Assembly (NCBI GenBank): GCA_903839725.1 | Contig: CAIMDG010000002.1 | Location: 241,117-305,116, forward strand | Direction: 5' to 3' | Source of the DNA: an uncultured bacterium | Lineage (GTDB): Bacteria; Patescibacteriota; Minisyncoccia; Phycocordibacterales; PALSA-1337 | DNA: 64,000 bases | Part shown: positions 5,955 to 52,215 of the stretch, in pieces | Layout: the number at the start of each line of letters is the position of its first letter | How positions within the stretch are numbered: position 1 is the stretch's first letter | The notes under the pieces: model-generated | The model's input: the letters and a program-made list of their open reading frames with translations, nothing else | Databases searched by the model: none | Told to the model about the DNA's origin: nothing | Position numbers and translations under genes: made by a program

Positions 5955-6003
5955 GAACAATTCCCAGCGGGATGTCGTCTCATCGTGTAATTCTTGATGA
6001 TAA
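5955..6003 (+). repeat. Family-1 structured repeat, copy A (core only, 3' part displaced by the family-2 element)
   Basis: gaACAATTCCCAGCGGGATgTCGTCtcatcgtgtaattctt matches the cores at 11201, 43693, 51063 (reverse complement) and 52176 (reverse complement). Confidence 0.6.
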
Positions 6004-6028
6004 AATGAGGTTGAATTAGAACCCCTGA

Positions 6029-6147
6029 CATATATGAATAAAATGGACACTGCGAGCCTGACTGAGGCGAGCACTAGGAATTTTTCAGCAGACGAATGAG
6101 CACATTCGCCACTGGGCAAATATCCGCGTCCATTTTATTCATATATG
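6029..6147 (-). repeat. Family-2 GC-rich structured repeat, copy 1: a 20-bp perfect inverted repeat (catatatgaataaaatggac / gtccattttattcatatatg) enclosing a ~79-nt core
   Basis: The reverse-complemented core cggatattt...gctgaaaaattcctagtgctcgcctcagtcaggctcgcagt matches 13340-13400. Confidence 0.6.
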
Positions 6148-6235
6148 CGGCTGGTTCTTCTCGCTGAGATTCTTATTTTATCTAGACACATACCAAGTAT
6201 TTCTGTTTTATCCCACACGCGCTATAATAGTCCCA

Positions 6236-7732
6236 ATGGACGACACTCAAGATCCACAAAACGACATAGTCAGCTCTGAAAATACGGAAACAACTGAGAA
6301 TGATGAATCAGAAATAAAATCTGGTCAGGTATTCGATATATCTGATGACAACATATCTCCTGCTTCAAATACTGAAGACGAGATGCCTCGCCCTATTTCA
6401 CGTACAACAATCCCTACGATAAAACCGAAGCCCCGCGTTATACCGATTCAAAATATTCCACCAGTAACAATACAATCAAAAGTCATACCTGATATTTCAG
6501 AAAAGACTCAGGAACAAACACCTATAAGACCATTCACTGGCTCCTTATCAAATTTGGAAATGGAAGTTGGTTCTCTGATCCCTCGAAACATGCAACAAAA
6601 AGAAAATCCTTTTGTTCATACAGCACCACCAGAAGAAAAAACAGAAACAGCTCATGAATACGACCAAAAAAATCTCAGAACATATGAAGGTGATGTTGCC
6701 AACATGCTCGCACATACCAAAACTTCAACCACGTCAATAGCTATTGCGGAAAGTCGTAAAACACACGGAACTGACATGATGGGAAGTGATGTCCAGACTC
6801 ATTCTACTGGAAAATTACTGCTTGTATTGGCAAGCATAGTACTTGTTGTTGGTGGGGTATTTGGTGCATATTATTTTTACAGTAAAAGCCCCTTGGCTCA
6901 AAAAGCTGTACCTGTAGTCCCCGAACAAAAAGTCACAAGTCTTATTCCCGCTGATGTACATACGAGTATAGCTATAAATAACCTCGGGCAAGCTGAAATT
7001 ATTTCACGCATCAAACAAGAAATTGCAAAACCATTACCAGGGGACACCATCAAAGATATTGTTCTTGTACGTGAAAATAATGCTGCTATTTCAACGGTCC
7101 TGTCGACTGACATATTAAAGACGATGAATATAGAGCCACCAAATATCCTTACTCGCACCCTCACACCACAATGGATGCTCGGTGTATATTCGAATGAAAA
7201 TAACGAGAAGAGTGTCTTTACTGTTTTCACAACAAATTATTTCCAAAATGCATTTTCAGGAATGCTCCAGTGGGAAAAAATAATGCCTGATGATATAAAA
7301 CAATACTTATTTGCTACACCACCACAAGGAATATCAAACAATCCTGGACAAGCAGTAAGACCAACCGTCGGTCCTGGAAGTCCTTTCGCTAACATCAATG
7401 CTCTTTTACCAAACTCAGATGTTCCAACCTCAACAAATCAAACAGGAACAACAACCAAACTTGCCAAGAAGTTGGCGCCAGCATCAACAACAGTCTCCTC
7501 GACTACAGAAATAGTAGTTCCTGAACCACCACTACAAGCATATGTGACGATCAATGGTCAATTTGAAGATCGTATTGTTAAAAACAAAGATATTCGCGCA
7601 TTCAAGACAACAGATGGTACTGTTCTTTTCCTCTACTCATTTATAGATAGCAATAAACTCATCATTACCGATAAAGAAGAGACTCTGGCCGACATATTGA
7701 TACGCCTTGAAAAACAAACATTCATGAGGTAG
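6236..7732 (+). CDS. Hypothetical membrane-anchored protein (acidic S/T-rich N-terminus, one TM helix, C-terminal domain)
   Basis: TM segment LLLVLASIVLVVGGVFGAYYFY; 498 aa; followed 3 nt later by a DksA/TraR-like gene. Confidence 0.45.
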   Translation: MDDTQDPQNDIVSSENTETTENDESEIKSGQVFDISDDNISPASNTEDEMPRPISRTTIPTIKPKPRVIPIQNIPPVTIQSKVIPDISEKTQEQTPIRPFTGSLSNLEMEVGSLIPRNMQQKENPFVHTAPPEEKTETAHEYDQKNLRTYEGDVANMLAHTKTSTTSIAIAESRKTHGTDMMGSDVQTHSTGKLLLVLASIVLVVGGVFGAYYFYSKSPLAQKAVPVVPEQKVTSLIPADVHTSIAINNLGQAEIISRIKQEIAKPLPGDTIKDIVLVRENNAAISTVLSTDILKTMNIEPPNILTRTLTPQWMLGVYSNENNEKSVFTVFTTNYFQNAFSGMLQWEKIMPDDIKQYLFATPPQGISNNPGQAVRPTVGPGSPFANINALLPNSDVPTSTNQTGTTTKLAKKLAPASTTVSSTTEIVVPEPPLQAYVTINGQFEDRIVKNKDIRAFKTTDGTVLFLYSFIDSNKLIITDKEETLADILIRLEKQTFMR

Positions 7733-7735
7733 AAT

Positions 7736-8107
7736 ATGGGCATGAATAAAAAGGAGACCGAACAATTCAAAAAGAAACTCGTCGCAGAAAAGGCTGAACT
7801 CGAAGCTGAATTAGCTTTGGTTGGTCAACGTAATCCCAATAATCCCAATACTTGGGAAGCAAATACTGGTGGTATGGAAGTTGACGCTGCTGATGAAAAT
7901 GAAGTAGCAGACAAACTCGAAGAATACGAAGGTAATGCGGGTATTGTTACACAACTTGAAAACCAACTTATCGAAGTAAATGCCGCACTTGATCGTATCG
8001 AAAAAGGAACCTATGGTCTCTGCGAGAAATGTGGCAAACCTATAGATAAGGGCCGTCTCGAAGCAAACCCATCATCACGATTTAGTATCGATCACGCAAC
8101 TAAATAA
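7736..8107 (+). CDS. DksA/TraR-family C4-type zinc-finger protein
   Basis: Coiled-coil N-terminus and C-terminal C4 finger with the GLCEKCGKPI spacing typical of DksA/TraR. Confidence 0.65.
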   Translation: MGMNKKETEQFKKKLVAEKAELEAELALVGQRNPNNPNTWEANTGGMEVDAADENEVADKLEEYEGNAGIVTQLENQLIEVNAALDRIEKGTYGLCEKCGKPIDKGRLEANPSSRFSIDHATK

Positions 8108-8112
8108 TATAA

Positions 8113-8136
8113 AAAGCCTCGAAAGAGGCTTTTTTG
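8113..8136 (+). terminator. Rho-independent terminator (6-bp stem, GAAA tetraloop, T5)
   Basis: agcctc-gaaa-gaggct-ttttt. Confidence 0.6.
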
Positions 8137-8266
8137 TTTCCGCTTATCACCGAGAGTCCAAAAGGAACATGTTGGACTTTCTGCACTATGTAGAACATTT
8201 TAAATCTTCATCAAGATTTGATTCTTTTTTCATCAATTCTTCATTCAACTGCAGTATGATCCAATC

Positions 8267-9793
8267 ATGGCAATTGCAAAAACATATACAGCTCAACTCA
8301 ATGGACTTGAAACTGAAATCATAACTGTTGAAGTAGACATAACAAATGGTCTCCATGCATTTTCAGTCGTTGGTATGGGTGACAGATCAGTAACAGAAGC
8401 CAAAGATCGCATATCAGCAGCAATAAAAAATAGTGAGTACACATCTCCGAAACAGAAAAATCAAAAAGTTGTCATATCACTTGCGCCCGCGGATCTGAAG
8501 AAGGAAGGAACCAATTTTGATCTTGCGATGGCAATAGCATATCTTTCAGCTGCGCATGAAATAGATTTTGACCCTGAACACACACTAATTCTTGGAGAAT
8601 TATCACTGGAAGGTCATGTAACTAAAATCCATGGTATTTTACCTATTCTCTGTAAGGCTCCAGAATACGGCTTTACGTCTGTATTTATACCAGAAAAAAA
8701 TAGTACTGAGGCTTCCTTGGCACGAGATATAACAATATATCCAGTCAATTCATTACAGGAAATTATACATCATATTTCTGGAACACAAATTATTAAAGCG
8801 CTCGAACATTCTCAATATAGTGATCATGCGACAGATAGTGCACATATCGACATGAAAACAATTCGAGGTAATGAGGTTGCGAAAAGGGGATTAGAAATTG
8901 CTGCAGCCGGTGGACACAATGTCATCATGTATGGACCGCCAGGTACAGGAAAGACTATGCTGGCACAAAGTTTTGCATCAATACTTCCTGCATTGTCATA
9001 TGAACATGCTGTTGAAGTTACAGGGATACATTCAGCCGCTCGTACACTACAAAATAATCTCATCTACAATCCACCATTTCGAGCGCCCCACCACACAGCC
9101 TCGTACCCATCGATTGTTGGTGGTGGAATCATTCCCAAACCAGGAGAGATAACATTAGCTCACCGAGGCGTGCTATTTGCCGATGAATTTCCGGAATTTG
9201 ATCGAAAAGTTATAGAGGCATTACGGCAACCTCTTGAAAATGGAACAATAACAATCTCTCGAGCACGTGGCGTGATAACATTTCCTGCACAATGCATCTT
9301 GATAGCTTCGATGAATCCTTGTCCTTGCGGAAAAAGTGGCACAAAAGAATGTTCGTGTTCACAACACACCATCGAAAACTACCGACGCAAAATTTCTGGA
9401 CCGATTGCTGATCGTATTGATATATGGCTCAACGTTGAGAAGGTGGATTATGAAAAACTAGCAGCAAAAGTACATATATCTGAATCTTCAGAATCGATAC
9501 GGAAAAGAGTTACTGTATGTCGTTCTCGGCAGTTCGAAAGATTTAGAAAATACAAGATAAAGAAAACATACAATAGCGAACTTTCCGCAGCTGATATAGA
9601 AACATGTGTACACATTGAAGATGGGGCCCGCTCTATATTAGCAGTATCTGCAGAAAAGCTTGAACTATCCGGCAGAGCATTCCACAGAATTATCAAAGTA
9701 GCACAAACTATAGCTGATCTAGAACAAAAAGAAATAATCTCCAAGGAACATATACTTGAAGCCCTACAATATAGACGCAAAATATCAAACTAG
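8267..9793 (+). CDS. comM: YifB/ComM-family Mg-chelatase-like AAA+ ATPase
   Basis: Lon-protease-like N-domain, Walker A MYGPPGTGKTMLA, C-terminal Mg-chelatase subunit ChlI-like domain; 508 aa. Confidence 0.9.
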   Translation: MAIAKTYTAQLNGLETEIITVEVDITNGLHAFSVVGMGDRSVTEAKDRISAAIKNSEYTSPKQKNQKVVISLAPADLKKEGTNFDLAMAIAYLSAAHEIDFDPEHTLILGELSLEGHVTKIHGILPILCKAPEYGFTSVFIPEKNSTEASLARDITIYPVNSLQEIIHHISGTQIIKALEHSQYSDHATDSAHIDMKTIRGNEVAKRGLEIAAAGGHNVIMYGPPGTGKTMLAQSFASILPALSYEHAVEVTGIHSAARTLQNNLIYNPPFRAPHHTASYPSIVGGGIIPKPGEITLAHRGVLFADEFPEFDRKVIEALRQPLENGTITISRARGVITFPAQCILIASMNPCPCGKSGTKECSCSQHTIENYRRKISGPIADRIDIWLNVEKVDYEKLAAKVHISESSESIRKRVTVCRSRQFERFRKYKIKKTYNSELSAADIETCVHIEDGARSILAVSAEKLELSGRAFHRIIKVAQTIADLEQKEIISKEHILEALQYRRKISN

Positions 9794-10878
9794 AATGGAT
9801 TCTTGGCACCTCTAATCTCAAAGTGAACGTGTGAGCCAGTTGAGTTTCCGGTAGAGCCCATGAGAGCGATATTCTGACCCTGCTTCACATAGTCACCTGC
9901 ATGAACAATGTTCTTTGAAAGGTGAGCATACACAGTCTGAGTACCATTTGGATGAGCAATAATAATAAAATTACCATATCCTCCATGCCAACCAGAATTA
10001 AATGCACTTACTATGACAGTTCCTTCTGCTGCAGCATATATAGGAGTACCTATTGGTGCAGCAAGATCAATACCATTATATCCGTGCAGACCTTGAGTCT
10101 TTCTACCACCGACGATCGGACGAATATAATATCCTGAATATGATGGGCCATTTGTACCATGAGCAATATTACCTGAAGAAACGGTTTTTGAAGAAGGTGG
10201 CTGGACCTGAAGTTCAGCATCAGGAATAATAACTGTTTGACCAATAGCGAGAGGGGATGTGAGAGTCAAATCATTATACTGAAGGACTTCAGTAAGATCC
10301 GCTTTGTAGATAGAGACAATACCTTTAATAGTATCTCCCTTCTTTACCGTATAACTAATTCCTGACACAGGCAAAATAATAAGTGTCTGACCTGTCTTGA
10401 GTGGAGAAGATCGTGAAATACCTAAATCTGAGTTTGACCACACAATAGTATTTACTGAAACATCAAACATCTTCGCAATAGTCGATAAAGTATCGCCATC
10501 ACGAACTACATATATACTAACCTGAGTATTTACTGAATCATTTGCGATAATTGGATCCGTGATTGAAATATCAGCAACAAGAATTTGACTATCACTGACT
10601 GGAATACTATCTGATGACTTTTCAACAATTTGATCATGATTAACTGTTGCCTGGAGAAGGGCAATAGTCTGTGAATTGGGATATTGTATCAAAGGCTGTA
10701 CTTTTGCAGATGCTTCCTGACCTTCAAATATCGATGAAATGAAAGAAAAAAGACCGGCGTGTGCGGTCATTGGGTATAAAAAGGGGACAAGTACAGGAAT
10801 AATAAAAAGAACTGTTCCTGTCATAGAACGCTTGAATAGACGGCTATATTTGGTTGCGAGAATGGTCTTGAATTTCAT
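9790..10878 (-). CDS. M23 family metallopeptidase with tandem LysM domains (cell-wall hydrolase)
   Basis: LysM motifs (DGDTLSTIAKMF; KKGDTIKGIVSIY) and an M23 core (HGYNGIDLAAP ... HVHFEIR). Start set at MKFKT (10878) ahead of a signal/TM segment; the ORF track extends to 11148, and an alternative start is 10824. Confidence 0.75.
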   Translation of the reverse strand: MKFKTILATKYSRLFKRSMTGTVLFIIPVLVPFLYPMTAHAGLFSFISSIFEGQEASAKVQPLIQYPNSQTIALLQATVNHDQIVEKSSDSIPVSDSQILVADISITDPIIANDSVNTQVSIYVVRDGDTLSTIAKMFDVSVNTIVWSNSDLGISRSSPLKTGQTLIILPVSGISYTVKKGDTIKGIVSIYKADLTEVLQYNDLTLTSPLAIGQTVIIPDAELQVQPPSSKTVSSGNIAHGTNGPSYSGYYIRPIVGGRKTQGLHGYNGIDLAAPIGTPIYAAAEGTVIVSAFNSGWHGGYGNFIIIAHPNGTQTVYAHLSKNIVHAGDYVKQGQNIALMGSTGNSTGSHVHFEIRGAKNPF

Positions 10879-11168
10879 AACAAAACTAGAGTTTTTGCAA
10901 ATCGTACATACTTCCTTTTTCGATACTCTAGGTAGGGCTCCCAATAAATTAAATGGCTCTGTAAAGCCATTATAATGGGTGCATCCCGAGGGGTGCTCTA
11001 CTAGCCTATCAAGCTCACAAACATTGTCAATCGGGGCTATACACAGCCACAAATAATGACTTACTGTCAATTTTTGTTGTAGCAAATTGAATGTTGCCCG
11101 TGAGTTAGAGTGAGGAGGTTGTTTGTGTGTTCCTGATTGAGATGACAACGGTTAATGGGTTGACTGTT

Positions 11169-11297
11169 GGAGCGAGGTGGCACATATACCCACATGAAAC
11201 AATTCCCAGCGGGATATCGTCCCATTACACTATTCTTTAGGCACTGACTTACTATCGTAACAGATGTTTCATGTGGGTATATGTGACACCTCGCTCC
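11169..11297 (+). repeat. Family-1 structured repeat, copy B: a 33-bp inverted repeat (one G.A mismatch) enclosing a 63-nt conserved core
   Basis: 5' arm ggagcgaggtggcacatatacccacatgaaaca, 3' arm tgtttcatgtgggtatatgtgacacctcgctcc. Core: aACAATTCCCAGCGGGATATCGTCccattacactattctTTAGGCACtgacttactatcgtaacagatgtttc. Confidence 0.7.
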
Positions 11298-11360
11298 ATA
11301 TTAAGAATTAAAAACAACTTTTATTACTCTACACCGCAGGCACATGGTATGATGCTCTTC

Positions 11361-13298
11361 ATGTCCACACTCAATAATGAACAACAACGAGCCATTGAAA
11401 CAACCGATGGACCAGTCCTTATCATTGCCGGAGCAGGATCAGGCAAAACACGCGTCATCACTCATCGAATACAGAACCTCATCAGAAAAGGTGTCGCTCC
11501 GCACGCTATTCTTGCTATAACATTCACCAATAAAGCCGCGAAAGAGATGCGCGAGCGAGTTCATGCCCTACTTTCAGAAGATTCGGGCTTGAATAGACCA
11601 GTATCAATGAGTGACCGACCATTTGTGAGTACATTTCACGCACTTGGTGTTCACATTATCCGTGAAAATGCCGCACTTCTTGGGCTCACACGACATTTCA
11701 CTATATATGACCGATCTGATTCACGTCGTGCCATCAAAGATGCTATGGAAAAGTGTTCAGTTGATCCAAAACAGTTCGAACCGGGTACTGTATTGAATCT
11801 CATATCACGCGCAAAAGGAGATGGTAGAACATTTCTCGAATACAAAGATTTTGCAAAAGGGTATACCGAGGAAATAGTTGCTCAAGTGTGGGAAAAGTAT
11901 GATGCCATCTTGGCAAAAGAGAAATCTTTAGACTTCGACGACTTGCTCTTGAAGGCCGCACGACTTCTCGCTGAGAATAAAACAGTGCGTGCACACTATC
12001 ATAACGTATGGAAATACATTCACATCGATGAATATCAAGATACGAACCGCGTGCAGTATCAAATTGCTAAATTTCTTGTTAGCGAAAGTCAGAATATTTG
12101 CGTCGTAGGAGATGCTGATCAAAATATTTATAGTTGGCGTGGTGCTACAATCGAAAATATTCTCAATTTTGAAAAGGATTATCCTAACACAACAGTTATT
12201 ACACTCGAAAAAAATTATCGTTCAACAAAAACAATTCTTGCAGCGGCAAATAATGTTATTGAATTAAATACATTACGCAAAAAGAAGACACTGTACACGG
12301 ACAATGCCGATGGCGACAAAATAACTATGATCGCTTCATATACAGAACTCGATGAAGCCCGTTCGATCGCTGATACAGCACGGGAGATTATGGAGAAGGG
12401 TACATCTGCACGACAGATTGCTGTATTGTATCGAGCAAATTTCCAATCACGCGCAATTGAAGAGGCCTTCATCAAGAAAAATATTCCGTATCAACTCGTC
12501 GGTGTTCGATTCTTCGAGAGAAAAGAAATTAAAGACATACTTTCATATATTCGTGCTGCCTTGAACCCTGAAAGTACCACTGATCTAGCTCGCATCATCA
12601 ATGTTCCTGCGCGAGGAATAGGGAAGGTTACCATCGCAAAAATAGTAGCTGGACAAGAATCAACATTACCAAGTGCTACCCGTGAAAAAATAGCCCAGTT
12701 TAGGCGTATTCTGGCTGATATTCATGCGGAGTTGCTCAGCAAAAAACCATCTGAATCCGTGCGTTTTGTGATTCAGGAAACTGGAATAGAAAAACTACTT
12801 CGCAATGGTGACAGTGAGGATGAAGAGCGTTTACTTAACATACAAGAATTGGTTTCTGTAGCTGCACAATATGACCACCTCACTCCAGAAGAGGGTATCG
12901 AATCACTTCTTTCGAATGCTGCGCTCGCAAGTGATCAAGATGATCTCCAGAAAGATGAAGACGCAGTGAAACTCATGACGGTACACGCTTCGAAAGGTCT
13001 CGAATTCGAATACGTATTCATCGCAGGACTTGAACAGGATCTTTTTCCATTCAAGCACATGGATGAAGCAGAGGTGAGTCGCGCCGAAGAGGAAGAAGAG
13101 CGCAGATTGTTCTATGTGGCACTCACTCGTGCAAAGAAAAAAGTATATTTAAGCCATACGATTATACGTACAGTGTATGGAGCACAACGTGTGAACAATC
13201 CGTCTGAATTTATCGGCAATATAAACAAAGATTTAATTGACGAACCTTCATCGCCACAAAAACCAAGTGGGGCTAAGGCGTTATTTATTGATTTTTAG
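11361..13298 (+). CDS. pcrA: ATP-dependent DNA helicase PcrA/UvrD (SF1)
   Basis: MSTLNNEQQRAIE start, Walker A AGAGSGKTRV, helicase motifs through VTRAKKKVYL. The ORF-track start at 11271 runs into the repeat stem, so start is set at 11361; 11344 is also possible. Confidence 0.9.
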   Translation: MSTLNNEQQRAIETTDGPVLIIAGAGSGKTRVITHRIQNLIRKGVAPHAILAITFTNKAAKEMRERVHALLSEDSGLNRPVSMSDRPFVSTFHALGVHIIRENAALLGLTRHFTIYDRSDSRRAIKDAMEKCSVDPKQFEPGTVLNLISRAKGDGRTFLEYKDFAKGYTEEIVAQVWEKYDAILAKEKSLDFDDLLLKAARLLAENKTVRAHYHNVWKYIHIDEYQDTNRVQYQIAKFLVSESQNICVVGDADQNIYSWRGATIENILNFEKDYPNTTVITLEKNYRSTKTILAAANNVIELNTLRKKKTLYTDNADGDKITMIASYTELDEARSIADTAREIMEKGTSARQIAVLYRANFQSRAIEEAFIKKNIPYQLVGVRFFERKEIKDILSYIRAALNPESTTDLARIINVPARGIGKVTIAKIVAGQESTLPSATREKIAQFRRILADIHAELLSKKPSESVRFVIQETGIEKLLRNGDSEDEERLLNIQELVSVAAQYDHLTPEEGIESLLSNAALASDQDDLQKDEDAVKLMTVHASKGLEFEYVFIAGLEQDLFPFKHMDEAEVSRAEEEEERRLFYVALTRAKKKVYLSHTIIRTVYGAQRVNNPSEFIGNINKDLIDEPSSPQKPSGAKALFIDF

Positions 13299-13308
13299 TT
13301 TAGTGGGT

Positions 13309-13427
13309 AAGCAAGCCCCACAACATGACTGCGGAGAGACACGGATATTTTTTTGCTGAAAAATTCCTAGTGCTCGCGCCAGTCGCGCTCGCAATGTCCC
13401 TATGTGGTAATGTTGTAGGGCTTGCTT
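13309..13427 (+). repeat. Family-2 GC-rich structured repeat, copy 2: an 18-bp inverted repeat (aagcaagccccacaacat / atgttgtagggcttgctt, one C.A mismatch that is G.U on the opposite strand) enclosing the core
   Basis: Core acggatattt...GCTGAAAAATTCCTAGTGCTCGCgCCAGTCgcGCTCGCAatgtcc matches the reverse complement of 6049-6127. Confidence 0.6.
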
Positions 13428-13452
13428 TCGTTTCACTAATACGTAATTATCA

Positions 13453-14271
13453 ATGGTATCGATGGAATTATTTGCAAAAAAATCTTTGGGGCAGCATTTT
13501 TTGAATTCAACACATGTATTGGATCAGATTATTGAGGCTGCACACATACAAAAAGGGGAGACTGTTCTTGAAATCGGACCGGGGACAGGCGTCCTTACAA
13601 AAAGATTGCTTGAAACTGGAGCAAAGGTCGTCACTATTGAAAAAGATGTGCGAGCTGAAGAGGTTCTCCGATCAAAATTTGAGGAAGAATTGAAAAGTGG
13701 GCAACTTACGCCCATTCAAGGAGATGTTTTAAGCGAAAACGTATTAGATTCCTATTTAAATAAAGAAAAATTAGCAGCATACGCGCTTGTTGCTAATATT
13801 CCGTACTACATCACTGGTGCGATACTAGAAAAATTCCTCGAGCATGAACCCCGACCTGATCGTATGGTACTTTTGGTACAAAAAGAAGTCGCTGAAAGAA
13901 TCGTGGCTCGGGATGCCAAAGAAAGTATCCTTTCTATTTCGGTCAAAGCATTTGGTATGCCGAAACTTGTCGCAAAAGTACCTCGCGGAGCTTTTACACC
14001 ACCACCAACAGTTGATTCGGCAATTCTATCAATTGAAAATATCAATGATACACTCTTTACACAAAAAAACGTTGTGATATCAAGGTTTTTTGAGATAGTT
14101 CGAGCTGGGTTTGCCCATAAGAGAAAGTATGTTATCCGAAATTTGGAGGCTACTGCGACACAAGAATCGCTCAAAAAGGCTTGGGAATACACACAATTTG
14201 ATCCAAAAAAGCGAGCTGAAGATATCACGCCCGCTCAATGGATAGAAATAGCTAGTCAACTCGGAAAATAA
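13453..14271 (+). CDS. rsmA: 16S rRNA (adenine1518/1519-N6)-dimethyltransferase
   Basis: LGQHFL motif, VLEIGPGTGVLT SAM-binding motif, NIPYYIT motif. Confidence 0.9.
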   Translation: MVSMELFAKKSLGQHFLNSTHVLDQIIEAAHIQKGETVLEIGPGTGVLTKRLLETGAKVVTIEKDVRAEEVLRSKFEEELKSGQLTPIQGDVLSENVLDSYLNKEKLAAYALVANIPYYITGAILEKFLEHEPRPDRMVLLVQKEVAERIVARDAKESILSISVKAFGMPKLVAKVPRGAFTPPPTVDSAILSIENINDTLFTQKNVVISRFFEIVRAGFAHKRKYVIRNLEATATQESLKKAWEYTQFDPKKRAEDITPAQWIEIASQLGK

Positions 14272-14280
14272 GAAGATATC

Positions 14281-16323: not shown

Positions 16324-16333
16324 TAGTATTACT

Positions 16334-30071: not shown

Positions 30072-30187
30072 GAGGCACAAGGGGTGTCTGTACTCATTTT
30101 CTGTACAAGTTTGTAAACATTGTGGTACGCGGTGTAATGTACATGTCTCTAAACTTGTACAGAAAATGAGTACAGACACCCCTTGTG
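30072..30187. repeat. 38-bp perfect inverted repeat (ggcacaaggggtgtctgtactcattttctgtacaagtt ... aacttgtacagaaaatgagtacagacaccccttgtgcc) flanking a 40-nt spacer, in the rpmH-dnaA intergenic region
   Basis: Hand-verified complementarity; DnaA-box-like TTATCaACA and cTcTCCACA motifs lie just downstream, around 30230-30260. Confidence 0.6.
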
Positions 30188-30298
30188 CCTACCAAACAGG
30201 GAAAACAATTTTACTATCCCCAACTTATCAACATATTTTATCGCTCTCCACAAGTTTGCATATTTATAAACAGGTATATACTTAGAGACACCAAACCT

Positions 30299-39811: not shown

Positions 39812-39897
39812 ACAGAAGAAGCAGGATTCACGATCCAAGATTCAAGAATAGTCGCAATACCATATTGTGTCTATTCTTGAATCTTGAATCCTACATC
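39812..39897. repeat. Long imperfect hairpin (gattcaagaatag / ctattcttgaatc core with extended arms, ~19-nt loop) in the ruvB upstream region
   Basis: Hand-paired; it sits within a 425-nt noncoding stretch (39790-40216). Confidence 0.4.
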
Positions 39898-40216
39898 ATG
39901 TTTTTTAATGCGCTCCTTTCGAACGTATGAACCTCTAAGCAATGGCCTTCCCAGGTTTGGGTGTAATGCTAAGGACATGTTGGTTGTTATGCTTGCATAA
40001 CGTACTGAAATTATCCTCGGGATTCCACCTCGCTTGACGCATCACGCGACAAGATATTGCTTAGAGATTCCTATGTTTGAATATACATCGCCGACAAGGC
40101 GGTTTATTCGTATATGAGGTGATACTTCTGGATATATCCTACTCTTGTCGCACTATAAAAATCAATTGACAGTGGGGATAAAATGGTTGGTAAGATGACG
40201 ATGGTAAACCTAGTTT

Positions 40217-43099: not shown

Positions 43100-43177
43100 T
43101 AGTTCTTTTGCAATCGCGAGCCAGCCATCTTTCACAAGGTGGCTGTCTTTTTTTATACGGTGCGCTATGATTCGAGC

Positions 43178-43651
43178 ATGAAGATATTTACGTCACATTC
43201 TCTCGATGAAACACGCGACATTGCAAAGCAATGGTTAATCGATATTTCAAATATATATAATGATCCTGACGAAGCACTGGTAGTTGGTCTCTCAGGCCAC
43301 CTTGGTGCAGGTAAAACTGCTTTTGTAAAATGTATTGCGAGTGAGCTCGGAATTCAAGGTGAAATAACCAGTCCAACATTCGTACTCATGAAGATGTATG
43401 AAATTAAGTTAAAAGGAAAAGATCAAAAGGTAAAAGTAGACGTGCCATGGAAGCGTCTTGTGCACATTGATGCGTATAGACTTGAAAGGAGAGAGGAGCT
43501 CGATGCTTTGAATTGGGAACAGTTAGTAGCTGACAAGAATAATCTCATCCTTATAGAGTGGCCAGAACAGGTTGGTTTGAAGGATTTTGAGAAATCTGCA
43601 CATATTAAATTTGAAATAAAAGAGGGGGTGCATACTATTGCAGTTGCGTAG
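43178..43651 (+). CDS. tsaE: tRNA threonylcarbamoyladenosine biosynthesis protein TsaE
   Basis: P-loop GLSGHLGAGKTAFVK and the TSPTFVLMKMYE motif. Start placed at MKIFTSH; the ORF track starts at 43139. Confidence 0.75.
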   Translation: MKIFTSHSLDETRDIAKQWLIDISNIYNDPDEALVVGLSGHLGAGKTAFVKCIASELGIQGEITSPTFVLMKMYEIKLKGKDQKVKVDVPWKRLVHIDAYRLERREELDALNWEQLVADKNNLILIEWPEQVGLKDFEKSAHIKFEIKEGVHTIAVA

Positions 43652-43663
43652 TTTAAGCTTATC

Positions 43664-43786
43664 GTATCTCTAGACACACTGCCCGTCGAAACAATTCCCA
43701 GCGGGATATCGTCTTTTAATATTATACTTTAGGCACATATATTAGAACGTCACGGATGTTTCGACGGGCAGTGTGTCTAGAGATAC
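43664..43786 (+). repeat. Family-1 structured repeat, copy C: a 30-bp perfect inverted repeat (gtatctctagacacactgcccgtcgaaaca / tgtttcgacgggcagtgtgtctagagatac) enclosing a 63-nt core
   Basis: Core aACAATTCCCAGCGGGATATCGTCttttaatattatacTTTAGGCACatatattagaacgtcacggatgtttc; about 30 nt upstream of the polA start. Confidence 0.75.
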
Positions 43787-43816
43787 GTTACTTCAATACT
43801 GGTGTACAATATACCT

Positions 43817-46324: not shown

Positions 46325-46439
46325 GGAAGATACGTTTGCTTACGAATGATAGACGAAGAGGAATGTATTGACATTGACACTACTATCTAGTTGTGGTATT
46401 TTTTGCCTTGAACATACGCAACAACGGAATCTTTGTCCT

Positions 46440-46751
46440 ATGAAAAATCAATCGCTTCATGAAGGTGTAGGGCCGTTTTTGGCCTTAGAATTGGGGGTTG
46501 AAATAACTCACCAATGGACCAGTAACAACTCTGTCGACTTCGAATTTAAACCAAATCCCGAGAAGCAGATATTCGGGACGCACATGAAAGATGCGTTACA
46601 AAAATACTACTCACCCAGCAAAGGTAATCAATTTTCAGCACTGGATGAACACTCAGGTATGGGATCGCTGATTGATGGGGTAAATATCAGTCACTCAGTG
46701 GCCTTTTCGATTTACACAGGCAGCATCAGATTAACCATTGAGGAAATATGA
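46440..46751 (+). CDS. Hypothetical small protein (first of a translationally coupled pair)
   Basis: Start placed at MKNQSL; the ORF track starts at 46368 inside a promoter-like TTGACA region. Overlaps the next ORF by 4 nt. Confidence 0.3.
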   Translation: MKNQSLHEGVGPFLALELGVEITHQWTSNNSVDFEFKPNPEKQIFGTHMKDALQKYYSPSKGNQFSALDEHSGMGSLIDGVNISHSVAFSIYTGSIRLTIEEI

Positions 46752-47047
46752 GCAATACACTAAGCAGGTTTCTCAACAATAAACTTGGAGGCAAACTCAT
46801 TCTGGATTCTCGTTGGATTCCAGACCGTAAATTCAAGATCGAATGCGGACAGATCGTCCCTTCGGTTTCATCAATTGCGAAACTCGTGCGTGAATACTAC
46901 GGGGCACAGTTTGTTGATGTTGTATTTGATGAATTCGACAATTTGATGAGTGAGTTTACAATGCTCGGCCAGCGGTATTGGATCGTCATCACTCCGATCT
47001 ATTTGTCACACCCACCCTTCATTCTTGTGAATATCGTGCCGTTATAA
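46748..47047 (+). CDS. Hypothetical small protein (second of the coupled pair)
   Basis: 99 aa; ATGA overlap with the previous ORF. Confidence 0.3.
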   Translation: MSNTLSRFLNNKLGGKLILDSRWIPDRKFKIECGQIVPSVSSIAKLVREYYGAQFVDVVFDEFDNLMSEFTMLGQRYWIVITPIYLSHPPFILVNIVPL

Positions 47048-47117
47048 TTTTAGTTTGAACCAAGGTGTCCAGAGAGCAGTCTCTGGCACTTTTTTTATTA
47101 GAGCATATACTGTAGGC

Positions 47118-47855
47118 ATGTTATATGTTTTTCATGGCACCGATATGGCTCAGTCAGCTCACAAAGCTCATGCCTTGGTCAATTCACTGCGTAGTAAGAA
47201 ACCTGATGCGTCATTTGTCAGGATTGAGGCAAGTTCCTGGAATTCATCGATAATTCAAGAACATGGGGGAGGGCAAGGCCTCTTTTCTAATAAATATATT
47301 ATTTTACTTGATCGTATCTCTGAGAATGCTGAAGCCAAAGAGGCATTTTCTGATACAGCTTCTATCCTGCACGAATCAACAAACATTTTTATTGTTCTTG
47401 AAGGAAAGTTGAATGCGGATTGGAAAAAAGCATGCGAAAAATATGCAGAGAAAATAGTGGTAAGTGATGAAAAAGTTGATGTTGGCGGAGCGTCAAAAAA
47501 ATCTGATTTTAATATTTTTGCATTGGCCGACGCACTCGGTAGCCGTGATTCATTCATGACATGGTCTATCTATAGACAAGCGGTAGATGCGGGAATAGAA
47601 GCCGAAAGTATTATTGGCACATTATTTTGGCAAGTTAAGTCTATGATTCTTGCCTCAACAGGGAAGAGTGCTGGAGAAACAGGGCTTAGTCCTTTTGTAT
47701 TTAGTAAAGCAAAGAAGCATGCAGGGAATTATTCAAGTGCGGAATTGTATGACCTTGTGAAAGGTTTGATTACTGTGTATCATGATAGTCATCGTGGACT
47801 TGTAGATGCGGAGAGTGGGCTTGAGGTGTTGTTGCTCAAGAATAGGAAGGGGTAA
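47118..47855 (+). CDS. holA: DNA polymerase III delta subunit-like protein
   Basis: MLYVFHGTD start and a C-terminal helical region resemble HolA. Start placed at MLYV; the ORF track starts at 47055. Confidence 0.4.
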   Translation: MLYVFHGTDMAQSAHKAHALVNSLRSKKPDASFVRIEASSWNSSIIQEHGGGQGLFSNKYIILLDRISENAEAKEAFSDTASILHESTNIFIVLEGKLNADWKKACEKYAEKIVVSDEKVDVGGASKKSDFNIFALADALGSRDSFMTWSIYRQAVDAGIEAESIIGTLFWQVKSMILASTGKSAGETGLSPFVFSKAKKHAGNYSSAELYDLVKGLITVYHDSHRGLVDAESGLEVLLLKNRKG

Positions 47856-47875
47856 TTATTATTTTAACAACTATC

Positions 47876-48409
47876 ATGAATACAGTTCAAAAATTTACAC
47901 TTTTATTTGCACATGTTTTTATTACATATGTAGTTTTCCTGGTTATATTTTGGCCTCTCGCATTTTTGGGAAGTTCCCTAGTCTCTCAAGGCAAATACAT
48001 TAGTGGTGGTATCACTGTGATGATTGCTACTTTTGTTGTTACCTATATTTCGTCGAGAATAATTTCAAAGATGTTTCCTTTTGATAAGGGTGTTAAGCGC
48101 TTTATTATTACAGCCGGTATTATAGGAATTATTTGTTCTGTGGTTAGATTTTTTTACTTGCATAATCCAGTAGAGTCACTGAATATGGCTCTCTTGGGTT
48201 TTGCTCTACTTGGATATGTCCCAGGGTCATTTTTCTTGAGACCACGTTTGCTTGAAGATGGAACAATTCTGCCTGAAAGTAAATCAAAGATTATTAGTAC
48301 GATTAGTCATAGAATCCATTCAATTAAGACAAGTCCAATAATTATTTTGGGAATTGCCGCTCTTATTCTATTGGTAGTAGTTACTTTAATAAATTTAAAA
48401 TATAAGTAG
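47876..48409 (+). CDS. Hypothetical polytopic membrane protein
   Basis: Four predicted TM helices; 177 aa. Confidence 0.4.
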   Translation: MNTVQKFTLLFAHVFITYVVFLVIFWPLAFLGSSLVSQGKYISGGITVMIATFVVTYISSRIISKMFPFDKGVKRFIITAGIIGIICSVVRFFYLHNPVESLNMALLGFALLGYVPGSFFLRPRLLEDGTILPESKSKIISTISHRIHSIKTSPIIILGIAALILLVVVTLINLKYK

Positions 48410-48415
48410 TGATAC

Positions 48416-49249
48416 TTACCCATACACTTCTACCGCTTCGGCAAGCGTGCGAGGGTAACGTTTTGTTTTGTCTGTAGAAAGATTATTTTCCATCATTTCA
48501 GTACTTGTGATGGTATCAGTCCATATTCTTTCACCTTCTGGACCAAGTTCCTGTAGTTTTTTAATGAATAATTTTCTATATTTTTTTATTCCCCCACCAA
48601 TATCGAGATGAAACATCAAGCTAAGGCTCGATGATACTTTTTCAGGGAAATGAGGTTTAGCTTTCTCGCGGGCAATCAATTCATCAACACTACTCGTGCC
48701 TCGGGTTGGATAATTTTTAAACCATAAAGTTGAAGCTTCTTTGTACACATCAAGATCTTTGAAGTATGTAAGAAATGATGAAATTTCTTTGTCTATTACT
48801 TTTTCTGATATAGGGCGAGTACGTACATGCCCCACGTCCTTGTCTTTAAGGTCAGATTTATTTTTTATACTATCTCTAAATTCAAGAATATATTTTTTTG
48901 CAACCTCTTCAGTAAGATAGGTCATATTGGGTGATTGTCCCTCAATTGCCCTGAGAACTTGGTCTTCAGGAACTCCATCTTTCTGGGCTATACGTTCCGA
49001 ATCTATAAATAAGTACCCATCAATGTCACTTCCTACGTGTGCTGTACCTTTTGTCATTGATCCGAACATGCAAAAAGAAAGTACTTCATCGTGCTTTTCT
49101 TTTATTTCATCAACCGCCTCTCTCACCGCTTGCATTCGCTCTTGTGCGAATGTTTCTTTTGATAAAACAAAACGTTTGTTGGTCTCATTCTTGGGACGTT
49201 CTTTGGTGAGTGATTCGAGTTGTTCGGGGGTGTAACCTTCTTTGTTCAT
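48416..49249 (-). CDS. Pol-beta-superfamily nucleotidyltransferase domain protein
   Basis: hGS-x9-DxD signature FGSMTKGTAHVGSDIDGYLFID; 277 aa with a helical C-terminal region. Confidence 0.55.
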   Translation of the reverse strand: MNKEGYTPEQLESLTKERPKNETNKRFVLSKETFAQERMQAVREAVDEIKEKHDEVLSFCMFGSMTKGTAHVGSDIDGYLFIDSERIAQKDGVPEDQVLRAIEGQSPNMTYLTEEVAKKYILEFRDSIKNKSDLKDKDVGHVRTRPISEKVIDKEISSFLTYFKDLDVYKEASTLWFKNYPTRGTSSVDELIAREKAKPHFPEKVSSSLSLMFHLDIGGGIKKYRKLFIKKLQELGPEGERIWTDTITSTEMMENNLSTDKTKRYPRTLAEAVEVYG

Positions 49250-49309
49250 TAACCTATTATAATAGAAAGCCCCGATCCTTTCGGATGGGGCGTGAGAGTT
49301 TTGAAAGCT

Positions 49310-49822
49310 TTATCGGCTACAGTCCCACTTGGCACATTCGGCGCAGGGTTTACCTTTTTCTTTTTCCGTCGGAATATGTCCGCAGATTTTACAGCGGAGA
49401 TTGTTTCCGGACTGTTGCTCGCGCATCCCAAGAGTGGCCAGTATTATGCGCAAATTAGCAGCATTCTTGTCCAAGCGATTTGCCAACTCCACAGTCGTCT
49501 CTTGGAACGTGCGAACTATTCTTTGAGATATAAATTCAGATGCGTTCTCGCGACAGACCATATCGAAACTACTTTCGAGCCTCGTTTGTCCTTGTTCCCG
49601 CGGACCATAAGGATCGATGCTCAATATGACAACCTTCACGTTGATGAACAGTGTGTCACACTGACCTTTCTCGTGAGGGGTGATCTTGATGACCTCGATT
49701 GTTTCAGCTGCCTGATTCAATCTTTCGAGGGCAGCGAAGGTGCCTTCGAATATGAGTTGCATCATCTTCCTCGTGGAAGGGTCATTTCCGTAACATTTCT
49801 CATCTATGCTTATCTTGGCCAT
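49310..49822 (-). CDS. Hypothetical protein with a C-terminal C4 zinc ribbon (CKICG ... CAECAKWDC)
   Basis: 170-aa ORF 60 nt upstream of the nucleotidyltransferase gene, same strand. Confidence 0.4.
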   Translation of the reverse strand: MAKISIDEKCYGNDPSTRKMMQLIFEGTFAALERLNQAAETIEVIKITPHEKGQCDTLFINVKVVILSIDPYGPREQGQTRLESSFDMVCRENASEFISQRIVRTFQETTVELANRLDKNAANLRIILATLGMREQQSGNNLRCKICGHIPTEKEKGKPCAECAKWDCSR

Positions 49823-49943
49823 ACGGCCTCCTTCTTTGTTGTGGTGTTAAACACCTTTAATTTCTGCATTTAAATGGTGCAGTTCCATTTCAGATACTAC
49901 TCCGAGGGAATTGATTGTCAACTAGATTGAGGTGTTTGTTCAG

Positions 49944-50018
49944 GTGCGCCCAGTTGGATTCGAACCAACGACCCACTCCTTAAAAGGGAGTTGCTCTACC
50001 ACCTGAGCTATGGGCGCA
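49944..50018 (-). tRNA. tRNA-Lys (anticodon TTT)
   Basis: Hand-folded cloverleaf: acceptor GCGCCCA, anticodon loop CTTTTAA, T-loop TTCGAAT. Confidence 0.85.
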
Positions 50019-50079
50019 TGCATGAAAGAGTACCACAAATTTGTAGTTAGGCAATATTGATACTGTGCCACACAACTTT

Positions 50080-50454
50080 TTATATTCCCCCAGCGTAATC
50101 GAATCCCCAGAATCCTGGACCCAAGAATATTGATGCTACTGCCAATGTGAGCAGAAGAACATAGTAATTCACACCATCAGAAAAGAGTTTTCCTTCACTT
50201 GCTTTGAATCCAAGTTTTATAACAAGGATAGCGGCATTGAGGAGTGCAGCGAGTTGAGTATACAACCCAATAACCAAAAATACTCCAATAACTAGTTCCG
50301 CAATTCCGTAGAGGGTTGTATTGCTTCCTGAACTTTGTCCATGTTTTTTGACTTTCTGATATCCAAAATAGATAAGTGTTCCTCCGAGAACGACGCGAAT
50401 GAGGAACGGTGCGAATTGCTCGTAGGTGTAGAGGGTAGGGAATAGTGAAAGCAT
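50080..50454 (-). CDS. DoxX-family membrane protein
   Basis: 124 aa with the DoxX-like TM pattern (FLIRVVLGGTLIYFGYQK). Confidence 0.65.
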   Translation of the reverse strand: MLSLFPTLYTYEQFAPFLIRVVLGGTLIYFGYQKVKKHGQSSGSNTTLYGIAELVIGVFLVIGLYTQLAALLNAAILVIKLGFKASEGKLFSDGVNYYVLLLTLAVASIFLGPGFWGFDYAGGI

Positions 50455-50497
50455 GATAGTTATTGTTATTGCTATGTTGGTATTATAGTATGCCTAT

Positions 50498-50989
50498 ATG
50501 ATAAAAGGGAAATCAATGCCAAGAGATATTCGACTAATTTTGGACAATATCCGTAGTGTTCATAATGTAGGCTCTATTTTCCGTACAGCTGACACCCTCG
50601 GTATTTCAAAGATATATTGTCTTGATACGACACCTACTCCTGTAGATCGATTCAAAAATAAGAGGAAGGACTTTGCGAAAGTTTCATTGGGTGCTGAGGA
50701 TACTGTGTTATGGGAACACGTGAGTAATTTCAAATCTATAATCTCAAATCTAAAAAAAGAAGGTTTTACCATTATTGCTCTTGAACAGGCGAATAATTCT
50801 GTTGACTATAAGCTGGTTGAATCGACCAATAAGACTGTAGTCATTCTCGGCAATGAAGTAGACGGTGTCTCAAAAGAATTATTACAGGAATGTGACATTG
50901 TTGCTGAAATACCTTTGATAGGGAAGAAAGAGTCCTTGAATGTATCGGTATCAGCGGGAATATTTTTGTATAGGTTGTTGGATAATTGA
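50498..50989 (+). CDS. SPOUT (TrmH/SpoU-family) RNA 2'-O-methyltransferase
   Basis: SpoU motifs HNVGSIFRTADTLG, ILGNEVDGVS, ESLNVSVSAGIFLY. Confidence 0.8.
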   Translation: MIKGKSMPRDIRLILDNIRSVHNVGSIFRTADTLGISKIYCLDTTPTPVDRFKNKRKDFAKVSLGAEDTVLWEHVSNFKSIISNLKKEGFTIIALEQANNSVDYKLVESTNKTVVILGNEVDGVSKELLQECDIVAEIPLIGKKESLNVSVSAGIFLYRLLDN

Positions 50990-50996
50990 TTATTTC

Positions 50997-51131
50997 GAGC
51001 CGGACGCGGTGACATGTGCACCTGCGAACAACTCCGTGACGATAGTGAATAAGTGCCTGAAGAATTACATAATGAGACGATATCCCGCTGGGAATGTTGT
51101 TCGCGGGTGCACATGTCACCGTGTCCGGCTC
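50997..51131 (-). repeat. Family-1 structured repeat, copy D: a 36-bp inverted repeat (perfect except for two G.U wobbles on the + strand) enclosing the core in reverse orientation
   Basis: 5' arm gagccggacgcggtgacatgtgcacctgcgaacaac, 3' arm gttgttcgcgggtgcacatgtcaccgtgtccggctc. Loop: ...GTGCCTgAAGaattacataatgaGACGATATCCCGCTGGGAATgTTg. Confidence 0.75.
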
Positions 51132-51148
51132 TGAATTGTGATTCGTCC

Positions 51149-52075
51149 TTACACTTTACTCAACTTTTGATGAGTGTCACAAAAATGAGTACCGCGACCA
51201 CCAAGAACGATGCGAACAATAGTTCCATTGCACCCCTTCTTATCACAAGGCGTTCCTGTTCTTTGGTAGGCATGATGACCTTCATGAAAACTTCCTTTTT
51301 CTCCGAGCACATTGCGATAGTCGGACGTCGAATCACCACCAAAATCGATACCTTTTGCAAGCGTTTGTTTGATTGCCTTGAATAGGTCGGTGAGCTGTTT
51401 TGTTGTTACATTCTCTACAGGTTCCTGTGGGTGTATACCTGCACGCCATAAAGATTCATCAGCATAAATATTCCCGATACCCGCAATGATGGATTGATCC
51501 ATAAGTACCTGTTTTATTTTCCCGTGAGGTCTTAGCAGTATTCTTTCTTCAAAAACTTTTTGAGTAAATGTATCTTCAAGAGGTTCGGGACCGATTCTTT
51601 CTAGATGTAGTGATGTAGTTTTTTCATGTGATGGTATCAATGTTACCTTGGCGAATTTTCGAACATCAGAAAGAGCGAGATTCTTCTTATTTGAAAAACT
51701 GAGCATGAAACGGATATACGCATTAAATGGATCTTTCAGTGCTTCTGGTTCAATAGCTTCCCACGGATCTTTTGTATTCGAGGTATTAAAACGATATGTG
51801 CCATAGAGTAAGTGGCCGGTCATTTTCATATGCACCAAGATAGTATCTCCATGTTCAAGATTGATTAGAATATTTTTTGCACGACGATGTACGGATATAA
51901 CTTTCTTTCCAAGAATAGTTTTTTTGAATTGGCTGAAATAAGCTCGATCTTTAATGGTATCTGAACCTTTGAAGTATGGACTATTATAATTTGACCATAC
52001 ATCCACTATAGTAAGCCCTACTATATGTTCTTGTAGGCCATTCACAGTGGTTTGTACTTCTGGTAGTTCGGGCAT
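51149..52075 (-). CDS. mutM: Formamidopyrimidine-DNA glycosylase (Fpg/MutM; Fpg/Nei family)
   Basis: N-terminal PELPEVQT with catalytic Pro2/Glu3, H2TH region, C-terminal zinc finger CDKKGCNGTIVRIVLGGRGTHFC. Confidence 0.85.
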   Translation of the reverse strand: MPELPEVQTTVNGLQEHIVGLTIVDVWSNYNSPYFKGSDTIKDRAYFSQFKKTILGKKVISVHRRAKNILINLEHGDTILVHMKMTGHLLYGTYRFNTSNTKDPWEAIEPEALKDPFNAYIRFMLSFSNKKNLALSDVRKFAKVTLIPSHEKTTSLHLERIGPEPLEDTFTQKVFEERILLRPHGKIKQVLMDQSIIAGIGNIYADESLWRAGIHPQEPVENVTTKQLTDLFKAIKQTLAKGIDFGGDSTSDYRNVLGEKGSFHEGHHAYQRTGTPCDKKGCNGTIVRIVLGGRGTHFCDTHQKLSKV

Positions 52076-52142
52076 ATATAGATACTAGTCCGTAAAAGGG
52101 AATCAGTAAACTGTGAAGCCTCCCAGATGAGTACACCCTGAT

Positions 52143-52215
52143 AAAACATCCGTTACGTACTAATATGAGTGCCTGAAGAATACGATAATGAGACGATATC
52201 CCGCTGGGAATGTTG
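52143..52215 (-). repeat. Family-1 structured repeat, copy E (complete core in reverse orientation, no flanking inverted repeat detected)
   Basis: aaaacatccgttacgtactaatatgaGTGCCTgAAGaatacgataatgaGACGATATCCCGCTGGGAATgTTg. Confidence 0.6.

Follow-up and report, generated by a model that had tools for sequence, protein, structure and literature searches.

A probable foldback DNA repeat with a conserved centre and divergent but complementary arms in a Parcubacteria lineage

We analyzed a stretch of 64,000 nucleotides (nt) from contig CAIMDG010000002.1 of an uncultured bacterium (hereafter "the window"), in which a short interspersed repeat, here called family 1, occurs five times. The host is a groundwater Parcubacteria genome whose closest named relative, as judged by MutM and PcrA homologues, is a Candidatus Taylorbacteria metagenome-assembled genome; the host itself probably belongs to this group. 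The family-1 unit measures approx. 125-140 base pairs (bp) and consists of a 63-bp conserved centre inside inverted-repeat arms of 30-39 bp. Family 1 is probably, although by no means certainly, a lineage-specific, non-coding foldback DNA repeat that resembles MITEs (miniature transposable elements with inverted repeats) and REPINs and shows an inverted pattern of conservation. As bacteria of the candidate phyla radiation have tiny, streamlined genomes, the density of about one family-1 copy per 13 kb of the window is notable.

When the window was searched with the 23-nt core ACAATTCCCAGCGGGATATCGTC, allowing up to 2 mismatches, five matches were found (5957+, 11199+, 43691+, 51098- and 52214-), while the number expected by chance was 0 (100 shuffles). 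A covariance model with 18 family members as input, searched against the window with filters off, matched exactly these five copies (A to E, with the scores given below); all remaining matches were generic hairpins with E > 0.05. A reading of the window from its sequence alone had described a five-copy family with a conserved core, and both searches agree with this description, the covariance model adding no further member. The five copies are as follows:

Copy A, 5930..5995, + strand: truncated copy, with 5' arm at 5930-5959 and core nt 1-36 at 5960-5995, the 3' half of the loop and the 3' arm being gone; 35.8 bits with the covariance model, hidden Markov model positions 2-44; a family-2 hairpin lies next to it.
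Copy B, 11168..11298, + strand: intact hairpin in the spacer from which an M23/LysM peptidase gene and pcrA diverge; arms 11168-11201 and 11265-11298, 34 bp with 1 G.A mismatch; loop 11202-11264; 106 bits.
Copy C, 43663..43787, + strand: intact hairpin in the tsaE/polA spacer, upstream of polA; arms 43663-43693 and 43757-43787, 31 bp, perfect; loop 43694-43756; 108 bits.
Copy D, 50997..51131, - strand: intact hairpin between the convergent genes spoU and mutM; arms 50997-51032 and 51096-51131, 36 bp; loop 51033-51095; 103 bits.
Copy E, 52113..52242, - strand: recombinant copy without a stem in the spacer between mutM and an amidase gene; 5' arm 52242-52212, loop 52211-52149, foreign 3' segment 52148-52113; 72 bits.

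The long self-complementary stems that had been noticed around the core of B, C and D were confirmed (34, 31 and 36 bp), and in these three copies the loop is exactly 63 nt and the folding energies have z-scores of -10 to -13 as compared to shuffles, both strands being alike. The arms of copy D include two non-Watson-Crick pairs (transition mismatches), both of which are G.U on the + strand. The window includes the origin region (dnaA/dnaN at 30-33 kb, with rnpA and yidC); as the copies read +,+ on one side of dnaA/dnaN and +,-,- on the other, with no switch at the origin, a polarity relative to the replication origin was rejected.

Overall, 25 distinct family-1 copies were compared, i.e., the 5 from the window and 20 from related Parcubacteria (Taylorbacteria-like) assemblies of independent samples. 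Exact-pattern scans found real copies only in the GTDB genome CAIUOX01 (loci L002 and L008) and in the JGI metagenome Ga0194062 (L010, L011, L014, L016-L018 and L020), all other matches being chance matches in GC-rich coding DNA. Pattern scans of viral contigs yielded no family-1 match and none was found in plasmids; carriage of the element on plasmids or viruses was therefore rejected. Further contigs were chosen by their encoded MutM and PcrA homologues at graded distances. L022-L027 and L043 represent strains of the window organism; MutM identity to the window is 90% for L032, 81% for L028-L031 and L037 (same scaffold), 77% for L033 and 72-74% for L034-L036, and PcrA identity is 96% for L037, L038 and L041 and 81% for L039/L040. 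Of the 13 intact copies examined first, 12 have a loop of 63 nt and one has a loop of 64 nt; their stems measure 30-39 bp with 0-2 mismatches. No family-1 copy was found in the next relatives, L034 and L035; at site D (sites are named after the window copies), L034 carries a different hairpin.

Within the loop, three blocks are nearly invariant (nt 1-20, 33-43 and 55-63) and are separated by spacers of constant length and variable sequence; nt 1-20 hardly change even in L039, the most distant member. RNAalifold found no covarying pairs inside the loop on either strand, and a fold inside the loop was rejected on this basis; the CCC-AGC-GGG mini-hairpin of the loop is invariant and is broken without compensation in two copies. 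The loop also carries no coding signal, as its variable positions follow no 3-nt period and a conserved start codon is lacking. The peptide-like frame that had been dismissed as non-coding thus proved to be so. Specifically, a small peptide was rejected since the sense frame lacks a start codon and often contains TAG, and an antisense peptide was rejected since its ATG is lacking in a subfamily and the sole variable site of the conserved block is non-synonymous there.

The relationships among loops do not follow orthology. The loop of window copy D is closest to the E loop of L016 (4 differences, as compared to 10 to its D orthologues), and only 2 differences separate the loop of window copy E from its nearest relative, the D loop of L032, which indicates that copies exchange loop sequence. 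Moreover, the B loops of the window and L037 are mutual nearest neighbors (7 differences) despite a flipped loop and unrelated arms.

Conversely, the arms show little similarity among copies. The mean similarity score of non-orthologous arms was 10.9 as compared to 10.4 for shuffles (standard deviation 2.2), and recurrent sequence is limited to the 5-6 bp closest to the loop (GAAACA/TGTTTC or variants) and to a loosely kept GAAG/GGAG tip. The reported reversal of the classical MITE pattern, with the centre conserved and the arms not, therefore extends across the compared copies. The accompanying claim that the stems are completely different in each copy is correct on average; however, a few pairs of arms at different loci are clearly homologous, namely L017/L018 over their full length and L002/L011 over the 25 nt next to the loop. 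Such homology between loci that are not orthologous shows that arms travel with the loop and subsequently diverge. At orthologous sites, loops are 73-89% identical, while the identity of arms is 0.36-0.56 (shuffles 0.40-0.49), except for site A (0.67); identity at mutM four-fold sites is 0.70 for window/L032 and 0.31-0.43 for more distant pairs. The arms thus diverge at or above the neutral rate, yet stay complementary.

This complementarity is retained through changes that appear in both arms. Mirrored indels were observed in L017/L018 (2 nt and 1 nt), in L002/L011 (5 nt) and between the D copies of the window and L028 (1 nt), and C-G to G-C swaps, i.e., transversions, are likewise mirrored in both arms of related copies. 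Over the 12 bp nearest the loop, pairing is found in 97.2% of cells, covariation in each of the 12 pairs, and G.U in only 2 of 216 cells (0.9%). Mirrored changes together with almost pure Watson-Crick pairing suggest arm-to-arm copying at the DNA level rather than selection on an RNA helix; replication template switching both creates and repairs perfect stems (PMC8794818, PMC5941160). A manual count of transition-type mismatches by strand (10 versus 4) was not significant, and the choice of an RNA strand from G.U mismatches was thus rejected. We also rejected the idea that arms represent acquired spacers or guides (CRISPR-like), as 19 arm sequences (18 hairpin 5' arms and the replaced 3' segment of window copy E) had no match in 50,697 phage records and nothing beyond 14-nt chance matches in the compared loci.

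Comparisons at orthologous sites revealed presence/absence polymorphism at sites A, B, C, E and F (the pcrA-ksgA spacer). Site C is occupied in the window strains only; in L028 and L033, it consists of a 34-nt spacer that aligns on both sides of the insertion point and contains no palindrome. Empty sites without a palindrome were likewise observed for E in L033 and for A in L039. The suggestion that the element inserts into, or creates, long palindromes thus failed in its first part, since the check for arms at empty loci found no pre-existing palindrome at site C (L028 and L033) or site E (L033), and pre-existing palindromes at empty sites were rejected; some replacement of the core within an existing stem seems to occur, as described below for site F. 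Empty sites without a palindrome imply that the arms arrive with the element. In strain L025, which has an identical MutM, only the right half of copy C is present, joined at ..TTT/GGCAC to unrelated DNA by the contig end. A protein search with the 46-amino acid peptide encoded at this junction gave no match, and an autonomous parent at the junction was accordingly rejected.

Other sites remain occupied by hairpins that differ among genomes. At site D, a hairpin is present in four genomes (the window, L032, L028 and L033), with loops that are 73-84% identical and arms that are near random. Site B, upstream of pcrA, is a hotspot of hairpin turnover: L010 carries a + hairpin with arms unrelated to those of the window, L037 carries the opposite orientation with yet other arms (perfect, 35 bp), L038 has no hairpin and a 135-codon open reading frame (ORF) instead, although its PcrA is 96% identical, L039 has two diverged hairpins in tandem, and the L041 assembly has an N gap exactly at the site. 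Overall, the unit that is gained, lost, replaced or flipped in intergenic spacers is the whole hairpin, including its arms.

Two further observations concern the pcrA region. The palindromic motif TGAC-N5-GTCA (TGACTTACTGTCA, then ATTTTTGTTG) at 11057-11069, upstream of pcrA, is found at the same position in L010, L037, L038 and L039 and persists while the adjacent hairpin turns over; it looks like a candidate operator for a regulator of pcrA. In addition, gene callers use an ATG inside the 3' arm of copy B and call pcrA 30 codons too long (window 11271-11360), yielding a product of 675 amino acids in database proteins P0121/P0122 as compared to 645-648 amino acids in relatives without that ATG; the true start is probably 11361. 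In practical terms, these hairpins mislead gene callers (as for the pcrA start) and break assemblies (as for the N gap in L041).

Copies A and E, which had been described as having a core and no stem, are damaged hairpins, as each keeps its 5' arm and has intact orthologues. In L010, which is syntenic with 1-12 kb of the window, site A holds an intact hairpin (8396-8518) with perfect 30-bp arms, and its 5' arm is identical to the surviving 5' arm of window copy A at 28 of 30 positions. In L037, L038 and L041, copy A has lost its pairing (12 of 30 positions mismatched) and the conserved loop blocks are mutated too, which indicates that copies can die. At site E, L016 and L032 carry an intact hairpin with 31-bp arms between flanks identical to those of the window. 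Window copy E has kept its own 5' arm and loop nt 1-27, while the rest of the loop and the whole 3' arm were swapped for another half-element; the replaced half of the loop differs by 2 nt from the D loop of L032. Window copy E is thus a chimera that arose by exchange between copies.

A second group of hairpins (family 2) shares sites with family 1. Its core, ..GCGAG-NNNN-GACTG-NNNN-CGAGCACTAGGAATTTTTCAGCA..AAATATCCGYGTC, is likewise enclosed by copy-specific inverted repeats, and a 4-bp mini-hairpin around GACTG is differently compensated in the three copies (GCCT/AGGC, GCGC/GCGC and GGAC/GTCC). These copies are:

6028..6148, + strand: family-2 hairpin beside truncated copy A, with 20-bp perfect arms and a 79-nt core.
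13309..13427, - strand: family-2-core hairpin at site F, with outer stem AAGCAAGCCCYACAACAT.
L002 7703-7816: third family-2 copy.

Both window copies of family 2 occupy family-1 sites. Beside the intact copy A of L010, only the right end of the 6028-6148 hairpin is present. At site F, L037, L038 and L041 carry a family-1 hairpin where the window carries a family-2 core, while these hairpins share homology over the outer 18 bp of the stem, with differences mirrored in both arms. A homologous stem around different cores suggests that an existing stem at times has its core replaced. The F hairpins of L037 and L038 are separated by 11 differences, for which hypermutation was rejected, as similar clusters occur elsewhere; the differences probably represent a recombination tract.

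The gene context of family 1 and its match to known signals were also investigated. With the gathering threshold applied, neither the window nor 12 loci gave an Rfam match to family 1, and searches with E up to 10 yielded only generic long-hairpin microRNA models, on both strands; a known RNA family was thus rejected. None of the copies overlaps a terminator-like site and the stems are not followed by a T-run, a promoter-like match was found in copy C only and no signal is common to the copies; a role as promoter or terminator was rejected given the lack of a common -35/-10 or terminator signal and the 63-nt loop. Relative to their neighboring genes, copies are divergent (6), co-directional sense (2), co-directional antisense (3) or convergent (1). 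The reported proximity to gene starts is thus real in the window, although orientation relative to genes is inconsistent across the family, and a 5' untranslated regulator of DNA-repair genes was rejected due to this mixed orientation and the presence of metabolic genes among the neighbors. Overall, family 1 does not look like a folded RNA gene, promoter, terminator or coding sequence.

We propose that a family-1 copy spreads as a whole hairpin, whose arms are inherited and then diverge while remaining complementary. A change in one arm, including indels, would be copied to the other arm at the DNA level, likely through replication template switching or intramolecular gene conversion, i.e., quasipalindrome correction. 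The centre would be the part that is read by sequence, probably by a protein, which could be a mobilising enzyme that needs only a paired stem or a host factor; copies would also exchange centre sequence with each other, as is partly documented by the loops. Several observations weigh against this account. No target-site duplication or shared direct repeat was found in the flanks of the 13 intact copies, no autonomous partner or transposase was found in approx. 0.6 Mb of compared sequence, and no two copies in one genome have identical arms, so that no recent transposition has been caught. Some spacers keep a hairpin from genome to genome (D in four, B in several), which could reflect function or site preference rather than mobility, and the near-invariance of loop nt 1-20 argues for selection on some function. 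Moreover, loop and arms have different histories at site F and at site B of the window and L037, so that whole-hairpin movement alone is insufficient, site F being the main fact that it does not explain in its simple form.

These different histories could also arise if the core alone were mobile and inserted into, or replaced the centre of, hairpins or palindromes resident at a locus, with stems being locus-specific. Beyond site F, where a family-1 or a family-2 core sits in a homologous outer stem, this would account for the location of both window family-2 copies at family-1 sites, for the nearest-neighbor B loops of the window and L037 with their flipped loop and unrelated arms, for the repeated gathering of hairpins in the B spacer (two in tandem in L039), and for the different hairpin at site D of L034. 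We nevertheless consider a mobile core unlikely, given the palindrome-free empty sites C (L028 and L033) and E (L033), the co-inheritance of arms and loops across loci (L017/L018 and L002/L011), and the uniform 30-39-bp stems, often with GAAG/GGAG at their outer tips, which fit a defined element better than random resident hairpins. A similarly low probability is assigned to a reading in which the centre is the recognition site of a structure-specific DNA enzyme (HUH-nuclease or recombinase type) acting on the extruded hairpin, with breaks in the loop being repaired from other copies and by fold-back synthesis. If this were true, centres would be homogenised, flipped and swapped between families within one stem (as at site F), while the arms would be rewritten each time, and family 1 would represent a system of "hairpin cassettes" that propagate themselves and differ from MITEs, REPINs and attC sites. 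A centre that served as the handle of such an enzyme would constitute a new way for small elements to spread.

The sequence-only reading had offered, as one option, a structured RNA whose closing helix is constrained only to pair. As a structured non-coding RNA, family 1 would be a small RNA or a cis-regulatory or processing element, e.g., an RNase III substrate, with a functional loop, and some data would fit: the closing helix covaries strongly, loop conservation at orthologous sites exceeds neutral expectation, 4 of the 5 window copies lie 30-280 nt upstream of genes, and RNase III can cleave transcribed Correia hairpin repeats (PMC10969869). We regard this option as poorly supported and quite improbable, as the loop has no covarying pair on either strand and its CCC/GGG mini-hairpin is invariant with uncompensated breaks in two copies, G.U pairs are rare (2 of 216 cells), both strands fold equally well, arm indels are mirrored, gene orientation is mixed and the loop is flipped at site B, neither a common promoter- or terminator-like signal nor an Rfam match at E = 10 was found, and the family occurs in a narrow clade only, with copies that decay or are replaced from strain to strain. 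Selection on the loop could alternatively reflect a protein-binding DNA site domesticated by the host, e.g., for a nucleoid-associated or a repair/replication-linked factor, with inverted repeats that allow cruciform extrusion. The conserved blocks with fixed-length variable spacers, the persistence of the element at corresponding spacers of diverged genomes (four for D, three for E) and the many neighboring genes that act on DNA (pcrA, polA and mutM, and putative recO, recJ, rnhA and comEC as read from translations) are consistent with such a site. However, it is absent from L034 and L035, varies between strains of one population (L037 versus L038 and L025 versus L022) and is decaying in copy A of L037; distance to start codons is not fixed, orientation is mixed, and aldolase, iscS, sod and an ATPase gene are also among the neighbors. 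We thus hold a domesticated site to be rather improbable as well. Finally, amplification and assembly errors can yield palindromes (foldback chimeras), and the N gap of L041 lies exactly at site B; chance similarity or an assembly artefact is nevertheless extremely improbable, as zero copies are expected by chance and identical hairpins occur in independent assemblies from different samples and centres (ENA, JGI and NCBI).

Family 1 is a clear case from nature of long DNA hairpins whose sequences drift until they are unrelated, while mirrored substitutions and indels keep them perfectly paired, and it bears on how perfect stems arise and persist. It also illustrates that stem covariation alone is no proof of RNA.

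Parcubacterial phyla have the highest density of perfect inverted repeats among all phyla (PMC13155455), and the window contains other long hairpins; the genomic background thus seems permissive for such structures. One of these hairpins (30073-30190; 48-nt arms that are 94% complementary, 22-nt loop) separates dnaA from a short minus-strand ORF (putative rpmH) that lies upstream of rnpA, a spacer within the presumed origin region, and the listed dnaA ORF begins inside the 3' arm of the hairpin; its arm contains GTACTCAT, and the same motif is found in several family-1 arms. Another (55998-56111; 32-nt arms that are 97% complementary, 50-nt GC-rich loop) lies approx. 100 nt upstream of tRNA-Ser and had no Rfam match at E <= 1 but generic hairpin models. 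Adjoining this hairpin, a tRNA-Ser segment aligns inverted between L016 (3958-4046) and the window (56298-56210), which suggests a small inversion or rearrangement between the two. The spacer between ruvB and the next gene (window 39816-39906 and 39918-40081) holds an imperfect palindrome with 44-nt arms as well as a 26-nt inverted repeat 112 nt apart that recurs with changed sequence in L028 (20580-20743); there was no specific Rfam match, and this may be an unannotated structured RNA or another repeat.

Three additional observations were made outside these hairpins. A type III hammerhead ribozyme (Rfam RF00008; 50.5 bits as compared to a gathering score of 48.5) with the canonical CUGAUGA...GAAA core is located at 1543-1598 on the - strand and is kept at the syntenic position in L010 (3981-4036) and L037 (1063-1117). 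Downstream of ksgA (approx. 16.3-27.5 kb), the window contains genes similar to those of type IV secretion systems (T4SS) and conjugation (TrbL, PrgI, TraC-like, TraG P-loop and T4SS pilin), which are syntenic in L037-L041. An integrated island is found in L029 (11329-17208), L030 and L032 (12133-16164), at a site that corresponds to approx. 49.9-50.1 kb of the window (tRNA-Lys/doxX); it encodes a large serine recombinase, with a rolling-circle Rep (REP_ORF2-G2P) in L029 and L030 and a tyrosine integrase in L032. This island is absent from the window, and no family-1 core was found at its borders.

Among known systems, the hairpins at replicon origins or nick sites that are served by HUH endonucleases (the nonanucleotide loop of circoviruses and geminiviruses, ssoA of rolling-circle plasmids) have a conserved loop and stems that only need to pair; these loops measure 9-20 nt and lie beside a rep gene on a small replicon. 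Family 1 differs in its 63-nt loop, its many chromosomal copies and the lack of an adjacent rep gene. Integron attC sites resemble family 1 as recombination-type sites that are recognised by structure and whose stem sequence is free as long as it pairs. However, attC sites have conserved R''/R' boxes at the foot of the stem and a variable tip and form cassette arrays next to intI, whereas family 1 has a conserved tip and a variable foot and is scattered among syntenic housekeeping genes, with no integrase nearby. Quasipalindrome correction and template switching explain why arms are perfect, why compensatory changes span several bases, why indels are mirrored, and how the spacer is inverted and arms grow outward (PMC8794818, PMC5941160, PMC8604942), but represent a mutational process and not an element, and leave the conservation of the 63-bp centre and the multi-copy state unexplained.

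Repetitive extragenic palindromic (REP) sequences and REPINs, which are mobilised by REP-associated tyrosine transposases (RAYTs), share with family 1 the form of hairpin-forming intergenic repeats that lack target duplications and are long retained in a lineage, and are presumably recognised in folded single-stranded form by an enzyme that is encoded once and acts in trans. Their arms are conserved REP sequences around a variable loop, a pattern that family 1 reverses. No RAYT-like gene was found among the genes annotated at the compared loci, which cover the genome only in part and were not the subject of a dedicated search, and no transposase, RAYT or integrase was tied to family-1 copies in the compared sequence.

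MITEs usually have target-site duplications and conserved terminal inverted repeats that match those of a parent insertion sequence, around a variable interior. Family 1, in contrast, has arms at the level of shuffles (10.9 versus 10.4) and a conserved centre, with no duplication seen, and no parent insertion sequence with matching ends was found in approx. 0.6 Mb of compared sequence, viral contigs or plasmids. On the other hand, family 1 is small (125-140 bp), non-coding and dispersed (5 copies in 64 kb and 25 overall), and thereby resembles MITEs such as the Neisseria Correia elements (CREE) and ERIC/IRU, which are non-coding, multi-copy, intergenic repeats of 100-200 bp that are often located near gene starts (PMC10969869). 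The long hairpin, strain-variable presence, inversion in place and nesting or adjacency of family-1 copies are likewise shared with MITEs (PMC10969869).

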